Of a DNA stretch of 64,000 bases, positions 14,313 to 57,024 are shown in pieces (position 1 is the first letter of the stretch; each line of letters opens with the position of its first letter). Location of the stretch: assembly GCA_013286655.1 (NCBI GenBank), contig JABDFG010000004.1, positions 7,008-71,007 on the forward strand. The letters are read 5' to 3'. The translations under genes were made by a program, and so were the position numbers. Source of the DNA: Bacteroidota bacterium (lineage in GTDB: Bacteria > Bacteroidota > Bacteroidia > JABDFU01). The notes under the pieces are model-generated. The model saw only the letters and a program-made list of their open reading frames with translations, searched no databases and was not told the DNA's origin.

Positions 14313-16115
14313 ATGGAAAACTTTGTTGTATCGGCGCGAAAATACCGGCCCGTAACCTTTGATACGGTTGTTGGCCAAAGTTCTATTACCTCCACGCTTA
14401 AAAATGCCATTAAGAATCATCATTTAGCCCAGGCCTTCTTGTTCTGTGGACCACGGGGAGTCGGAAAAACTACTTGTGCACGTATTTTGGCCAAAACGAT
14501 TAACTGCCAGAATATTACTGCTGCTACGGAAGCTTGCGACCAATGTGACTCCTGCAAATCATTCAACAACGGACAATCCCTGAATGTATATGAACTGGAT
14601 GCCGCTTCCAATAATTCGGTTGACGATATCCGTAACCTGGTAGATCAGGTGCGCTTTGCACCTCAAATGGGCGATTACCGCGTGTACATCATCGATGAGG
14701 TTCACATGCTATCCCAGTCGGCATTCAATGCATTCCTGAAAACCCTGGAAGAACCTCCGAAACATGCTATTTTCATTTTAGCAACTACAGAAAAACACAA
14801 GATCATTCCAACCATTCTCTCGCGTTGCCAGATTTTTGATTTTAACCGGATACAGGTGGAAGATATTTCCAGTCACATGGCATTCATCGCGAAAAGTGAA
14901 GGGATAACAGCCGATGCCGACGCCTTGCACATCATTGCACAAAAGGCCGATGGCGCCTTACGTGATGCCTGTTCCATTTTTGACCAGATTGTAAGTTTTG
15001 CGGGAAACAATCTCACTTACAAAGCTGTTATTGATAACCTGAACATACTGGATTATGATTATTATTTCAAGATCACAGATGCTCTGCTGACAGAAAATAT
15101 TCCGGCCTCCCTGCTTCTCTTCAATGAAATTCTAAACAATGGGTTTGATGGACATAATTTTATAACGGGCCTGGGTGAGCATTTCCGTAACCTGCTTGTT
15201 TGCAAAGACCTTTCTACCCTGGAACTGCTTGAAGTAAGTGCAAACATAAAGGATAAATACAAGGAACAAAGTGGAAAATCTACGCTCCCCTTCCTCCTCC
15301 GGGCATTGAACATTTCAAACAAGTGTGACGCTCAGTATAAATCCAGTAAAAATCAGCGATTGCAAGTGGAGTTAACGCTGATGCAAATTGCTTCTATTAA
15401 TGCTACAGAGGCCGAAAAAAAAAAGGACATAATTCAGATAAATGAACGACCAATTGCGAATAGCGAAAAGCCAATAGCCAATAGGGGAGAGCAACCGGTT
15501 AAATCGGAATCCCAAATCCCAAATCCGGAATCCCAATTATTCACATCTCTTCCTGTATCTTCATCTGAGTTCATGAATGCTTCGCATTTCCCAAATTCTA
15601 ACCCCCCTGTTCTTCCATTAAAAAAGTCTGCTTTAAAAACCTCCTCTCCTTCCATCAGCCAATTCATCGGACAAAACAAAACCGAAGAAACAAAAACGAA
15701 CGTTTTGGCTAATGAAGCTTTTTTAAAAGACAAAGAACGTCCATCACTTCCTTTTTCACAAGATATGCTTGAAAGTACCTGGAATAATTATGCCCGGCAA
15801 ATGCAGCAAAAAGGAAAACTTAATCTATATAGCACCCTCACCTTTCGCAAACCACTTTTGAAAGAAAATTTCCTGATTGAGTTTACCATAGAAAATAAAG
15901 TTCAGGAAGAAACGCTTGAACTGGAAAAAACAGATCTTTTAGGATTTCTGCGCAAAGAACTGAACAACTATACCACTACGCTCAAAACAATTATCAACAC
16001 GGTCGAAAGTGAACGCAAGCCTTACACAGCAAGTGATAAATTCAAACGTATGGCTGAAAAAAATCCAATGATCAATAAGTTAAAGCAACAATTCGACCTT
16101 GATATTGAAATCTAA
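14313..16115 (+). CDS. dnaX: DNA polymerase III subunit gamma/tau
   Basis: 600 aa. Contains Walker A GPRGVGKTT, DEVHML, the zinc module CDQCDSCKSF and SRCQIFDF. A long low-complexity linker follows residue ~371. Confidence 0.95.
   Translation: MENFVVSARKYRPVTFDTVVGQSSITSTLKNAIKNHHLAQAFLFCGPRGVGKTTCARILAKTINCQNITAATEACDQCDSCKSFNNGQSLNVYELDAASNNSVDDIRNLVDQVRFAPQMGDYRVYIIDEVHMLSQSAFNAFLKTLEEPPKHAIFILATTEKHKIIPTILSRCQIFDFNRIQVEDISSHMAFIAKSEGITADADALHIIAQKADGALRDACSIFDQIVSFAGNNLTYKAVIDNLNILDYDYYFKITDALLTENIPASLLLFNEILNNGFDGHNFITGLGEHFRNLLVCKDLSTLELLEVSANIKDKYKEQSGKSTLPFLLRALNISNKCDAQYKSSKNQRLQVELTLMQIASINATEAEKKKDIIQINERPIANSEKPIANRGEQPVKSESQIPNPESQLFTSLPVSSSEFMNASHFPNSNPPVLPLKKSALKTSSPSISQFIGQNKTEETKTNVLANEAFLKDKERPSLPFSQDMLESTWNNYARQMQQKGKLNLYSTLTFRKPLLKENFLIEFTIENKVQEETLELEKTDLLGFLRKELNNYTTTLKTIINTVESERKPYTASDKFKRMAEKNPMINKLKQQFDLDIEI
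15419..15425 (+). other. candidate recoding site in dnaX: slippery heptamer A_AAA_AAG inside a 10-A run (15415-15424)
   Basis: The zero frame reads GAA AAA AAA AAG GAC. The -1 frame stops at TGA 15443-15445, and the +1 frame stops at TAA 15430-15432. Confidence 0.45.
15447..15600 (+). repeat. in-frame copy of the intergenic heptamer/hairpin repeat family inside the dnaX linker
   Basis: 15454-15481 is a gcNaata-type heptamer run. 15502-15538 reads aatcggaatcccaaatcccaaatccggaatcccaatt. Segment 15529-15589 matches the intergenic segment 55592-55651 at about 54 of 61 positions, including 30/31 over cttcat(c/t)tgagttcatgaatgcttcgcattt. Confidence 0.85.
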
Positions 16116-53554: not shown

Positions 53555-54466
53555 TCAATCAAACAACCCTTTCTGCCTGATAAATTTTACTTCGGGTATC
53601 TGCAATTTACAAACCCTGTTCAATTCCTTGATGGTGTATGCGCATAACTCGGGAGAGTGCATTTCCTCATGCTGGTGCATAAAGAAATAAATTTCCTGAA
53701 TTCCGGCAGCTATCCATTTCTTTATGCGCTTTACCCAATCATCAATCCGTGTATAATCGGTAGGATGCAAACCATTCCCAACAAAGCGAATGAAAGCCTT
53801 TGGCGTAGTCAGCCCCATGTGAACACAATCTCTTCTCCCCGAGGCATCCGTGATGACGGTTCCAAAACCGGTTTCTGCAAGCATTTCAAATAACCGGGCG
53901 AAATTACCTTCTGCATACCAATCCTTGTGACGCACTTCAACAAAAACATCCAGGTCCTTTGGCAATGATTTCAAATAGGCTTTCATGGAATCGAATTCTT
54001 TCGGCCCGTAGTTGTCGGAAAGTTGAAGAAAACAAGGCCCAAGATGTTTCCCAAATGTATAAATAGCATCCAAAAAACTATCCGTAACCTCTTTCGCATT
54101 TTTCAAACGACGAATATGTGAGATTGAATTAGTAAACTTGGGGCAAAACAAGAAATCCTTTCCAACTTTACTGACCCATTTTTCAATCGTGCTTTTGGGA
54201 AATATCTGGTAGAACATCGCATTAAATTCGATGCAGTTAAAATGTTTAGCATAATTATCCAGGAAGTCAGCTTCTTTGGTTCCTTTGGGATAAATTTTTC
54301 CGATCCATTCTTTTCTGCCCCATTTGGCACAGCCCACATGCACCTTCACTTCCTTTCCCTTGGGTCTTGCATGCTTTTTTAATAACGCAATCGTTTCCGG
54401 TCTGTCAAGCGGTAGCGTAAAATCAATCTTGTTTATTTCCGAGGGAAGAACTTTTCCGAATTCCAT
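53555..54466 (-). CDS. DUF72 (YecE-like) family protein
   Basis: 303 aa. The sequence VHVGCAKWGRKEW...FNCIEFNAMFY...VEVRHKDW resembles the DUF72 family. Confidence 0.8.
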   Translation of the reverse strand: MEFGKVLPSEINKIDFTLPLDRPETIALLKKHARPKGKEVKVHVGCAKWGRKEWIGKIYPKGTKEADFLDNYAKHFNCIEFNAMFYQIFPKSTIEKWVSKVGKDFLFCPKFTNSISHIRRLKNAKEVTDSFLDAIYTFGKHLGPCFLQLSDNYGPKEFDSMKAYLKSLPKDLDVFVEVRHKDWYAEGNFARLFEMLAETGFGTVITDASGRRDCVHMGLTTPKAFIRFVGNGLHPTDYTRIDDWVKRIKKWIAAGIQEIYFFMHQHEEMHSPELCAYTIKELNRVCKLQIPEVKFIRQKGLFD

Positions 54467-54477
54467 GAGGTAAAGAT

Positions 54478-54550
54478 TTGGGATTAAGGATTAAGGATTA
54501 AGGATTGGGGATTGGGGATTGGGGATTGGGGATTTAAAGATGAAGGATTC
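54478..54550. repeat. heptamer tract (AAGGATT)3(GGGGATT)4 in G-rich orientation
   Basis: Four GGGG runs lie at 54507-10, 54514-17, 54521-24 and 54528-31, separated by ATT. The tract sits in the spacer between paaY and the DUF72 gene. Confidence 0.95.
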
Positions 54551-54553
54551 AAA

Positions 54554-55153
54554 TTATGGATTTTTATTAGTCTGCCTCCAGGTTTTATAAACATCATCCT
54601 GAGATCTCCTGTCTTGGGGTACTTCTCTCAAAGGGTCACATGATTTAAGCGTAGCGTGGCATTCGGAAGGCAATTGCTGGTAGAGCGCGGTACCTGCTGT
54701 TTTCCATTTGATCATTTCTTCACTAACATCTTTTACAATTTTAGCGGGACTTCCTACCACCACTTTTCGTTCCGGGATGATCATGCCCTCCGGCACAAAG
54801 GTCAATGAACCAATAATACTGTTATCTCCTATGACCACATTGTCCATCACGACAGCATTCATCCCGATCAACACATTTTTACCGATTGTACTCCCATGTA
54901 CAATAGCCCCGTGGCCAATATGAGCACCTTCTTTCAATAAAACGGTTGTTCCCGGAAACATGTGGATGGTACAATTTTCCTGTACATTGCAGCCGTCCTC
55001 AAGGATGATTTGCCCCCAGTCTCCGCGGATCGCCGCACCCGGTCCTATGTACACATCCTTCCCGATGATGACATTCCCTGTCACGGCAGCCTGCGGATGT
55101 ATAAAAGCACTGGGATGAATGACCGGTATGTATCCTTTGAATTCGTAGATCAT
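54554..55153 (-). CDS. paaY: hexapeptide-repeat (gamma-carbonic-anhydrase-like) protein, PaaY-type
   Basis: 199 aa. Left-handed beta-helix repeats (IGKDVYIGPGAAIRGD..., IGHGAIVHGSTIGKNVLIGMNAVV) in a paa-cluster context. Confidence 0.7.
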   Translation of the reverse strand: MIYEFKGYIPVIHPSAFIHPQAAVTGNVIIGKDVYIGPGAAIRGDWGQIILEDGCNVQENCTIHMFPGTTVLLKEGAHIGHGAIVHGSTIGKNVLIGMNAVVMDNVVIGDNSIIGSLTFVPEGMIIPERKVVVGSPAKIVKDVSEEMIKWKTAGTALYQQLPSECHATLKSCDPLREVPQDRRSQDDVYKTWRQTNKNP

Positions 55154-55192
55154 GGAAGATTTAGGATTTAGAAATCGGGATTAGGGATTTTT
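55154..55192. repeat. degenerate heptamer tract (GGATTTA / GGGATTA)
   Basis: The sequence ggaagatttaggatttagaaatcgggattagggatttttt lies between the four-helix-bundle gene and paaY. Confidence 0.75.
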
Positions 55193-55202
55193 TATAACTC
55201 AT

Positions 55203-55571
55203 TTATAAATCCTTGTTTTTTGATTTAATGGTCCTGATTGCGGCGGAAAAAATGGAAACCAATTCGTTAGCCTCTTTTAATAAAATTTCTAACTTATTTT
55301 TGTCACATTTAAGTTCCAGTTCATTAATAAATTCAAGCCAGAACATACTTTCATCCGCTTCTTCATCAACTATTTTAAGTTTATTCAAAAAATCAGAACT
55401 CGATTTACCTCTACACACAGCTCGATAATTAGCTGCGACAGACGAGGATGCTTTAAATAATTGATACGAAATAACTTCCGTTGACTTCTCTTTAGGTAAA
55501 GTTTCCAAAAATTTAAAAACGTTTATTGCAAATACTTTTGTTCTTTTCTTTAATTCCTCCTTATCCATCAA
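55203..55571 (-). CDS. four-helix-bundle protein (23S rRNA intervening-sequence protein / Avd-like family)
   Basis: 122 aa. FKFLETLPKEKSTEVISYQLFKASSSVAANYRAVCRGKS..DFLNKLKIVDEEADESMFWLEF matches the family pattern. Confidence 0.85.
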   Translation of the reverse strand: MMDKEELKKRTKVFAINVFKFLETLPKEKSTEVISYQLFKASSSVAANYRAVCRGKSSSDFLNKLKIVDEEADESMFWLEFINELELKCDKNKLEILLKEANELVSIFSAAIRTIKSKNKDL

Positions 55572-55584
55572 TTATCCGAATTAA

Positions 55585-55805
55585 AATCCTTAATCCCAAT
55601 TATTCACATTTTTTCTTTGTCTTCATTTGAGTTCATGAATGCTTCGCATTTATTCGCATCATTTTTTATTTTTCTTCGGTGCTCATGAATCCTCCTTTCG
55701 TCGGATTTCCCAATTCCCAATTCCCAATTCCCAATTCCCAATTCCCAATTCCCAATTCCCAATTCCCAATTCCTTAATCCCAAATCCTAATTCCTTAATT
55801 CCTTC
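55585..55805. repeat. composite element: heptamer stub, two hairpin units, (CCCAATT)9, then four degenerate heptamers
   Basis: Nine perfect CCCAATT copies occupy 55709-55771, followed by ccttaat cccaaat cctaatt ccttaat. Units at 55622-55651 and 55678-55708 match dnaX 15560-15589 and 39515-39545 respectively. Confidence 0.95.
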
Positions 55806-55809
55806 ATCA

Positions 55810-57024
55810 TTATATTTTTTCAATTACAACAGCATACCCCTGCCCTACCCCTATGCACATAGTGATGAGTGCATATTTTTTATTCTGTTCCTGTAATTCA
55901 ATCGCTGCTGAATTTAAAATCCTTGCCCCACTCATTCCCAGAGGATGTCCTATTGCAATTGCTCCTCCATTCGGATTAATACGCGAATCGGTATCTTCCA
56001 AACCCCAGGCCCGTATGCAAGCCAGGCTTTGGGCAGCGAAAGCTTCATTCAATTCAATTATACCCATATCTGCCATTTTCAGGCCGGCCTTTTGCAAAGC
56101 CTTGTTGCTGGCTCCTACGGGTCCAATTCCCATGATGCGGGGTTCAACTCCCACTGCTGCAGAAGAAACAATTCTTGCTATAGGTTTCAGCTTGTATTTT
56201 TTAACAGCCTCTTCCGAAGCAATTAGCAGTGCCGCAGCTCCATCATTTAAACCAGAAGCGTTACCAGCGGTTACCGTGCCGTCCTTCCTGAAAGAGGGCT
56301 TAAGCTTACTCAGGATATCAAGCGTCGTTCCCGCTTTGATAAATTCATCCCGATCAAATACTTCCGGATCGCCCTTGCGCTGAGGAATACTAAGCGACAC
56401 AATCTCTTTCAGGAAACGGCCCTTTTTTTGGGCCGCAGTTGCCTTGAGCTGACTATGCAAGGCGAATTTATCCTGGTCTTCCCGGCTTATCTTATCCCGT
56501 TCCGCAAGATTTTCCGCTGTTTCGCCCATAGCATCCGTTCCGTATAATTCCTTCATTTTAGGATTTATGAAGCGCCAGCCGAAACTACTGTCAAACATCT
56601 GCGCGTCTCTCCCGAACGCAGTACTGGTTTTGGAAATTACCCAAGGCCCCCTGGTCATATTTTCCACACCACCCGCAATCATCAGTTCAGCATCACCCAC
56701 CATAATGGCACGTGCAGCAGCAATGGAAGCCGACAAGCCCGAAGCACATAAGCGGTTCACCGTTTCTCCTGGAACAGAAACAGGCAATCCAGCCATCAGG
56801 GAAGCCATACGTGCCACATTGCGATTATCCTCACCCGATTGATTGGCACATCCTAAAATCACGTCTCCAATTTCGTTTGGATCTATGCCGGAGTTCCTTT
56901 TCAATAGTTCCTTCAAAACAATAACGGCCAGATCATCCGTCCGAATAGAAGCTAAGGTTCCACCGAAACTCCCGATCGGGGTCCGGATTCCATCTATTAT
57001 ATAAGCTGAGTTCATATTTCCCAT
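55810..57024 (-). CDS. paaJ: 3-oxoadipyl-CoA / 3-oxo-5,6-dehydrosuberyl-CoA thiolase
   Basis: 404 aa. Thiolase motifs [22 protein letters not shown] and CIGVGQG. Confidence 0.9.

Follow-up and report, generated by a model that had tools for sequence, protein, structure and literature searches.

In-frame modular repeat DNA in the tau linker of dnaX from an uncultured Bacteroidia genome

In an uncultured member of the Bacteroidia, the essential gene dnaX carries within its coding sequence a block of about 150 bases made of the repeat DNA that is normally found in intergenic spacers. The gene lies in a window of 64,000 nucleotides, the whole stretch of DNA that was analysed (GenBank assembly GCA_013286655.1, contig JABDFG010000004.1, positions 7,008 to 71,007), and belongs to a metagenome-assembled genome (MAG) of 2.62 Mb in 125 contigs that is 72% complete and is referred to here as G000. 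How did such DNA come to be translated in an essential gene, and does it serve the gene that now contains it? An earlier note on this DNA had proposed the exaptation or insertion of a repeat element or, alternatively, an origin of the element in the dnaX linker itself. The reading favoured here, to which a probability of roughly three in four is attached, is that positions 15447-15617 of the window are a copy of modular repeat DNA that was acquired recently, lies in frame and is tolerated. The gene and the parts of the block are as follows.

14313-16115, + strand: dnaX (tau/gamma clamp-loader subunit), an intact open reading frame (ORF) of 600 aa, from the ORF list
15414-15445, + strand: A10G slippery run and the stops of the alternative frames, read from the sequence
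15450-15484, + strand: heptamer array 1 of the CCAATAG/GCGAATA type, 5 units, translated PIANSEKPIANR (Tandem Repeats Finder, TRF, CCAATAG x5.0; C4:22457-22491 in contig coordinates)
15508-15536, + strand: heptamer array 2 of the AATCCCA type (complement GGGATTT), x4.1, translated ESQIPNPESQ (TRF; C4:22515-22543)
15536-15589, + strand: 54-nt core (attattcac...gagttcatgaatgcttcgcattt), translated LFTSLPVSSSEFMNASHF (nhmmer, C4:22543-22596, E 8e-16)
15576-15588, - strand, opposite to the dnaX sense: AATGC-GAA-GCATT mini-hairpin with GCGAAGC, seen in the sequence; the mini-hairpin DNA in the core is d(AAATGCGAAGCATT)
15590-15617, + strand: trailing degenerate heptamers (cccaaat tctaacc, to about 15605) and the junction to conserved dnaX; the match to contig C3 runs to 15601

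The three components described in the earlier note, a gcNaata heptamer run, AATCCCA-type heptamers and a 61-nt stretch similar to non-coding DNA, are all present where it had placed them. TRF recovers both arrays, and the translations quoted at the time (PIANSEKPIANRGE, SESQIPNPESQ and SSSEFMNASHF) are those of the dnaX frame, in which the block encodes the peptides SESQIPNPESQLFTSLPVSSSEFMNASHFPNSNPPVLPLK. A short spacer separates array 1 from array 2, and conserved dnaX sequence (KKSALKTSSPSISQF) resumes at about 15618. The similarity of the 61-nt stretch (15529-15589) to 55592-55651 is confirmed at 90.2% identity, with 5 mismatches and 1 gap, and the window contains the 31-mer cttcatNtgagttcatgaatgcttcgcattt at two positions only, 15559 and 55621, with none expected from 100 dinucleotide shuffles. 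Array 2 adjoins the core; together they make up a 94-nt block, which over 92-94 contiguous nt shares 89-90% identity with intergenic copies, the closest of which are C3:10327-10445 and C38:17242-17330 (E about 1e-32). No two cores in the family are closer than the dnaX core and the intergenic core at C3:10339-10392, which agree at 53 of 54 positions. Relative to flanking genes, the dnaX core is antisense to the usual intergenic orientation; read from the sequence, only one of its three frames is open in either orientation, the one used in dnaX included. The antisense strand of the dnaX copy holds only three consecutive GGG tracts. The flanking heptamer arrays are 1-2 nt out of phase across the core, and the idea that the core is counted in 7-nt steps is therefore unsupported.

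Comparison with relatives points to replacement rather than insertion. The gene was compared with dnaX from four genomes of the same genus (G001, G002, G004 and G005) and from about 15 other Bacteroidia. Its product contains the Pfam domains DNA_pol3_delta2 (aa 22-180), the ATPase lid (aa 185-231) and domain III (aa 245-363), and its identity to the three congener genes of full length is 73-78%; an exact-protein look-up returned no matching record. Nucleotide homology with the congeners extends to about 15445, the position of the -1-frame stop, and begins again at about 15618. Between these points each species has a different, unrelated linker of about equal length. The alignment called for in the earlier note finds the block to be lineage-specific: it is absent from dnaX of the four congeners and of the roughly 15 other Bacteroidia, and the core has no match in the congener dnaX genes (the congener genomes hold 0-4 matches, mostly partial). 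The protein is 600 aa long in G000 vs 601, 594 and 617 aa in the congeners, and this near-unchanged length indicates that the linker was replaced and not lengthened. The alignment shows that the block took the place of the ancestral linker DNA once the G000 lineage had separated from the congeners sampled. The proposed insertion of a repeat element thus stands in part: a copy of an intergenic element does lie in frame in an essential gene, but the lengths do not fit a simple insertion.

The composition of the linker adds to this picture. Lag-7 autocorrelation is present in the G000 linker alone (z 4.7 vs codon shuffles), and the lag-3 match fraction is 0.22 in G000 vs 0.29-0.37 in the congeners, so that codon periodicity is missing from the G000 sequence. 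In an AlphaFold2 model of the dnaX product built on a 27-sequence alignment, residues 369-471 have a predicted local distance difference test (pLDDT) score below 50 and no secondary structure, and the block, at residues 379-430, falls within this segment, which lies between domain III and the C-terminal domain and is predicted to be disordered. The lag-7 signal and the lost lag-3 periodicity fit a recent non-coding origin, and the low pLDDT fits a tolerant site, in line with the earlier description of the tau linker as tolerant. G000 is not alone in having heptamer arrays in the tau linker: a metagenomic dnaX that is 53% identical (L088:2126-2156) has a (CAGTCGT)x4.4 array in frame in its linker, at about aa 376. 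A further candidate for a linker array, L125, has an unclear frame and is not used. In the closest congener, G001, a single contig that ends inside the gene has the N-terminal part of dnaX on one strand and the C-terminal part on the other (L031, G001:C71:5800-9110), probably a mis-assembly at the variable linker.

The site just upstream of the block is of the kind used for recoding in dnaX of E. coli and Thermus. Codons 368-371 read GAA AAA AAA AAG (15414-15425), with the slippery heptamer A AAA AAG within the A10 run at 15419-15425, at the end of domain III. Both shifted frames stop early, the -1 frame at TGA 15443-15445 and the +1 frame at TAA 15430-15432, and the A-run and nearby -1-frame stop are kept in congener dnaX. 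A slippery A AAA AAG and an early stop in the shifted frame are features of recoding of the E. coli type, which is putative in this organism. E. coli dnaX frameshifting relies on a stem-loop downstream. In contrast to the E. coli and Thermus sites, no stimulatory structure is detected here: no stable stem-loop lies downstream of the slip site, 15426-15500 folding at -8.7 kcal/mol with z -0.17 vs dinucleotide shuffles, and the repeat block is found past the gamma stop. Its start is 2 nt from the end of the -1-frame stop, and the A10G run lies 22 nt upstream of it. As it lies 3' of this stop, the block is in the tau-only part of dnaX and would be translated only in full-length tau, downstream of the predicted gamma-type stop.

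Is the similarity a chance match between two loci? The genome-wide census excludes a one-off coincidence. Searched with an nhmmer profile of the 54-nt core, G000 yields 31 copies at a cut-off of E<1e-3, of which 11 are full length, and the 23-mer AAATGCGAAGCATTCATGAACTC occurs in 28 copies with up to 3 mismatches, its reversed control in none. Among 401 genomes sampled from the class, with up to 2 mismatches allowed, 16 contain the 23-mer and 385 do not; G000 has 26 copies, one other genome 7 and the rest 1-3, and the distribution is sporadic (12 of 200 genera). The congener genomes have 0-3 copies. By these counts the element expanded in the G000 lineage. In the second burst genome, G123 (class sample, family f24), the variant AAATGCGAAGCATTCACGAACAC is present 7 times, spread over seven contigs. 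The G000 cores outside ORFs occupy spacers, mostly between same-strand genes and oriented with those genes. Copies vary in modular composition and sit within heptamer arrays, and the one nearest the family consensus is that on C38, not that in dnaX. Three head-to-tail cores with a 51-52-nt period are found at C19:3691-3850 and at C36:15688-15837, indicating that the core also amplifies in tandem. TRF detects 101 period-7 arrays scoring 36 or more in the genome. Of these, 82 do not lie deep within long open frames, and the commonest heptamer families, AATAGCG and AATAGCC, make up 35 of the 101.

The family extends beyond this genome. The exact 23-mer is present in 18 other Bacteroidota species (Flavobacteriaceae, Cyclobacteriaceae and others) in unrelated contexts, and no gene neighbour common to these foreign loci was found. 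In most of them a GTGAATAAA-type word follows about 20 nt after the 23-mer, which is the architecture of the 54-nt core, and in three the copies, as read from their sequences, are enclosed by 12-bp inverted flanks that differ compensatorily. Two Flavobacteriaceae carry the 54-nt module within a group II intron (L043:4789-5008 and L034:4881-5070), and it can thus also sit inside another mobile element; in the cmscan alignment, the L043 module stands out as 54 nt inserted into domain 1 when compared with the Rfam RF02001 consensus. Rfam searches of the foreign loci give only group II intron and tRNA matches, and in the window no family reaches its gathering score. The dnaX block is consequently not taken for a group II intron fragment, as it has no such match and the L043 module is an insertion and not part of the consensus. 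Conservation within the core is highest in AATGC-GAA-GCATT, with an exact GCGAAGC inside. The oligonucleotide d(GCGAAGC) is described as a DNA mini-hairpin of extraordinary stability (Hirao group; review PMC13037366); its known sites are in phage and plasmid single-strand initiation, and no role in repeat spread is described there. The GCGAAGC of the core may form this hairpin too, and the match is a lead to a role of the core at the DNA level. As RNA, the core folds on both strands no better than shuffles (z between -0.7 and +0.3), with just the 5-bp mini-hairpin.

The earlier note had also suggested looking for in-frame copies in other genes, and repeat modules are indeed found in a DUF7948 loop, a thioredoxin-like lipoprotein, a methionyl-tRNA synthetase (MetRS) and a UbiD-like enzyme. 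Five of the 11 full-length cores lie in long ORFs: that in dnaX and those in four paralogs of 1084-1244 codons (stop to stop) that carry DUF7948 and in which the core is read on the other strand than in dnaX. G000 has at least 25 DUF7948 paralogs (for example C35:20226-23477, C5:23803-27450, C7:66553-70284 and C5:20429-23827), the domain being N-terminal in this family, and the congener G004 has 124 matches. The loop between YPGIDWVLY and YDFVVHPGAD varies from 5 to 55 aa across paralogs. It measures 37-55 aa where it bears a core vs 5-8 aa in the shortest paralogs and most sampled congener copies, and the best-matching congener paralogs have loops of mostly 7-8 aa. The long loops are built from three heptamer classes, with the core also present in four. 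In the thioredoxin-like lipoprotein (C6:39701-40420), an AATCCCA array and the first ~22 nt of the core are read in the dnaX frame (ESQIPNPNSQLFASF); the protein is ~20 aa longer there than its congener orthologues, and the insert precedes the CPMC motif.

Heptamer arrays without the core occur inside 19 long open frames, counted where the array lies at least 70 codons in. MetRS (C41:18818-18847; L060-L065) has the insertion ESLELESLKFKSLEFSNTKG with (TAAACTT)n between GYISATKEL and W..YW, and exceeds the congener enzymes in length by 12 aa and those of other families by up to 21 aa. In a UbiD-family decarboxylase (C46:9566-9699; L057, L058), in-frame AAAGTTC- and AGTTTAA-type arrays follow MCVDATTKFPEE; the enzyme is 14-22 aa longer than in congeners, and G004 has SSKFKVQSSKL at that site. 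The array in valyl-tRNA synthetase (ValRS, C37:2541-2566; L050-L056) is not a length insertion, as the loop before KQDEDVLDTWFSS has equal length in 6 of the 7 relatives compared. The heptamer words in this loop are AAAGTTC in G000 and in G025, a genome of a different family, AATTAAG in G004, AACGTCA in G021 and TTAATCC in G002, and the loop looks like an in-frame heptamer hot spot of constant length. Deep in-frame arrays are also seen in the linker of dihydrolipoamide acyltransferase (E2, C81:3907-3947), in a coproporphyrinogen oxidase-like protein (C49:13792-13825) and in UvrA (C26:215-237).

The intergenic reference copy in the window lies at a locus with an organization of its own, comprising the following features.

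55203-55568, - strand: gene for a four-helix-bundle/23S rRNA intervening-sequence protein (PF05635), 121 aa, found by genome search and Pfam (E 7e-12, above the family cut-off)
55599-55650, - strand: intergenic reference core copy (nhmmer, C4:62606-62657), 31 nt upstream of the PF05635 ATG and in the same orientation
55707-55810, no strand assigned: (TTCCCAA)n array of 12.6 units (TRF score 141)

The PF05635 gene is the only one in G000, and both the core and a related second module lie between its ATG and the 12-unit array. That array is an inverted arm to GGATTxx arrays at 55158-55190 and 54465-54535 (pairs I1-I7, 72-78% complementary), and the inverted heptamer arms enclose both the PF05635 gene and an adjacent ORF of 199 aa (54465-55810). 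An armed PF05635 cassette is thus present at 55158-55810; the dnaX block has no such ORF. Resemblance to 23S rRNA intervening-sequence/PF05635 cassettes is limited to the intergenic locus at 55592-55651, the dnaX copy being without the gene. By tblastn, none of the 18 foreign 23-mer loci has a PF05635 gene beside it, which rules out the core as a general 5' end or leader of this gene and makes the association a matter of one locus, not a rule.

Several other accounts of the dnaX block have to be weighed against a tolerated copy. If it had been exapted, it would serve dnaX as an RNA structure tuning frameshifting at the A10G run or as a new peptide motif in tau. Its start right after the slippery run and the -1-frame stop would suit the former, given that frameshifting in E. 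coli dnaX needs a downstream stem-loop. However, the folds of 15426-15500, 15500-15610 and the core have z of -0.17, -0.66 and -0.71 vs dinucleotide shuffles, the nearest plausible pairing is more than 20 nt from the slip site, the congeners retain the A-run and stop without the block, and the peptide falls in the region with pLDDT below 50. With no RNA structure beyond shuffles, no conservation in relatives and codon periodicity lost, exaptation is improbable. The alternative raised in the earlier note, that the linker is the source from which the element was copied to spacers, can draw on the closeness of dnaX and C3 (53/54), a pair between which copying may have run either way. It is nevertheless the least credible of the accounts and is rejected: the 23-mer and its GTGAATAAA partner occur in unrelated contexts in 18 other Bacteroidota species, with no common neighbour and even in a group II intron, no congener dnaX has the element, and the copy nearest the consensus is that on C38.

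A mis-join or collapse induced by repeats during assembly might also have put the sequence into dnaX. The MAG is rich in repeat and consists of 125 contigs, and the inverted, split dnaX on G001:C71 shows that such errors occur in this group. In G000, however, dnaX sequence is found on both flanks in the same frame, the total length fits that of the congeners (600 vs 594-617 aa) and gene order up- and downstream matches G001, while a repeat mis-join would normally connect dnaX to a different locus; an artefact is very unlikely. Classical transposition of a miniature inverted-repeat transposable element by a trans-acting transposase, combined with an independent deletion of similar size, would account for the multiple copies, the sporadic occurrence (12/200 genera) and the bursts of 26 copies in G000 and 7 in G123, all typical of mobile DNA. 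Against it, parsimony disfavours an insertion paired with a deletion of equal size, the block is not surrounded by terminal inverted repeats or target-site duplications (only weak 9-12-nt inverted matches), the copies are of variable modular composition and lie within heptamer arrays, and tandem 51-52-nt core arrays exist. In addition, the Y1/RAYT transposase (PF01797) is absent from this 72%-complete genome, other transposase families not having been screened, and mobilisation of the REP/RAYT type (repetitive extragenic palindromes and their associated tyrosine transposases) is rejected for want of a Y1 enzyme. Such transposition is accordingly held to be unlikely, if less so than an artefact.

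On the favoured reading, that of a tolerated copy of spacer repeat DNA, the block would do nothing useful in dnaX and would be neutral or nearly so, filtered by the requirement for an open frame. It would persist only through the combination of a usable, stop-free frame and a linker that tolerates almost any sequence of the right length. Copying would then have occurred by a replacement-type process independent of a transposase and not by cut-and-paste transposition, most likely through template switching or gene conversion between 7-nt-periodic arrays during replication, possibly assisted by the stable DNA hairpin. The arrays and cores in loops of other G000 proteins would stem from the same process. 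A number of points weigh against this reading. The perfect conservation of the 23-mer across families suggests that the core has a sequence-level function somewhere. A metagenome scan for closer dnaX relatives in which the block might be polymorphic gave a best match of only 70% identity. Neither the boundaries of the block nor the transposase search described above identifies a means of movement, and the copying mechanism is a proposal and not a demonstration. The near-zero net change in length is harder to obtain by simple insertion than by replacement, the continuity of the contig at dnaX relies on the assembly, and the lack of function is argued from absence of evidence.

Among known systems, the Rickettsia palindromic elements (RPEs) are the closest functional analogue; the resemblance would be functional only, and homology is not expected. 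As summarised in PMC10969869, RPEs are palindromes of ~150 bp found in frame in many genes (Ogata et al. 2000, 2002). In that account, as here, short dispersed repeats lie in frame in unrelated intact genes, housekeeping genes included, and their peptides fall in regions compatible with the fold. The present element is likewise a multi-copy family with in-frame copies in intact ORFs whose orthologues in relatives lack it. It is not as a whole a palindrome or a stable hairpin: it is modular, with heptamer arrays and a 54-nt core, and folds no better than shuffled sequence. Furthermore, the dnaX copy replaced sequence and did not add length, and RPE hosts are obligate intracellular alphaproteobacteria, whereas the host here is a Bacteroidia MAG of free-living type.

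The arrays themselves resemble known heptamer repeats, such as the heptamer long simple-sequence repeats (LSSRs; Mrazek et al. 2007, as cited in PMC4679880) and the G-rich heptamers GGGAATC in Xanthomonas and GGGGA(C/T)T in Nostoc, the latter of the short tandemly repeated repetitive (STRR) type (Rehm et al. 2015, PMC4692102). On the complementary strand, the AATCCCA and AATTCCC arrays read GGGATTT and GGGAATT and so consist of the same kind of unit; like the Xanthomonas and Nostoc repeats, they lie mostly between same-strand genes and vary fast in length and sequence between relatives. As in the LSSR, STRR and GGGAATC classes, the tandem 7-nt units are mostly intergenic (82 of 101 arrays). 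Repeats of the GGGAATC class are reported to be under-represented in Xanthomonas coding regions (PMC4692102). The arrays of G000 differ in being in frame in several housekeeping proteins and in being joined to a conserved non-repeat core. TAACTGA heptamer direct repeats have been reported from Beggiatoaceae, Cyanobacteria and a few Bacteroidetes (MacGregor 2015, PMC4679880). They share with the present arrays a tandem arrangement near start codons and a sporadic phylogeny suggestive of horizontal spread; their heptamer word is another one, and no core module is described in the part of that report drawn on here, which does note an intragenic case, two repeats near the end of a putative purC in Flexibacter litoralis. 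A limited literature search found no description of the composite element or of its presence in dnaX.

By itself the finding reveals no new function or mechanism. A wider interpretation, possible but doubtful at present, is that heptamer arrays and the GCGAAGC-hairpin core result from an active copying process in Bacteroidia, by template switching or by a dedicated enzyme, that overwrites DNA at near-constant length and rewrites loops and linkers of essential proteins. If so, the dnaX linker, the DUF7948 loop with its three heptamer classes at one site and the ValRS loop would be footprints of a single mechanism driving fast evolution of loops and linkers. For annotation, the case serves as a warning that repeat DNA, and not evolved protein sequence, may underlie low-complexity segments in conserved genes of such genomes. 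A natural data set on how repeats are copied and on how free linker and loop sequences are to vary is offered by the dnaX linker together with MetRS, the loop of ValRS and the 25 DUF7948 paralogs with loops of 5-55 aa. Heptamer/hairpin repeats of the Bacteroidota are thus found outside spacers as well; they are able to overwrite stretches of essential genes and to be translated there.

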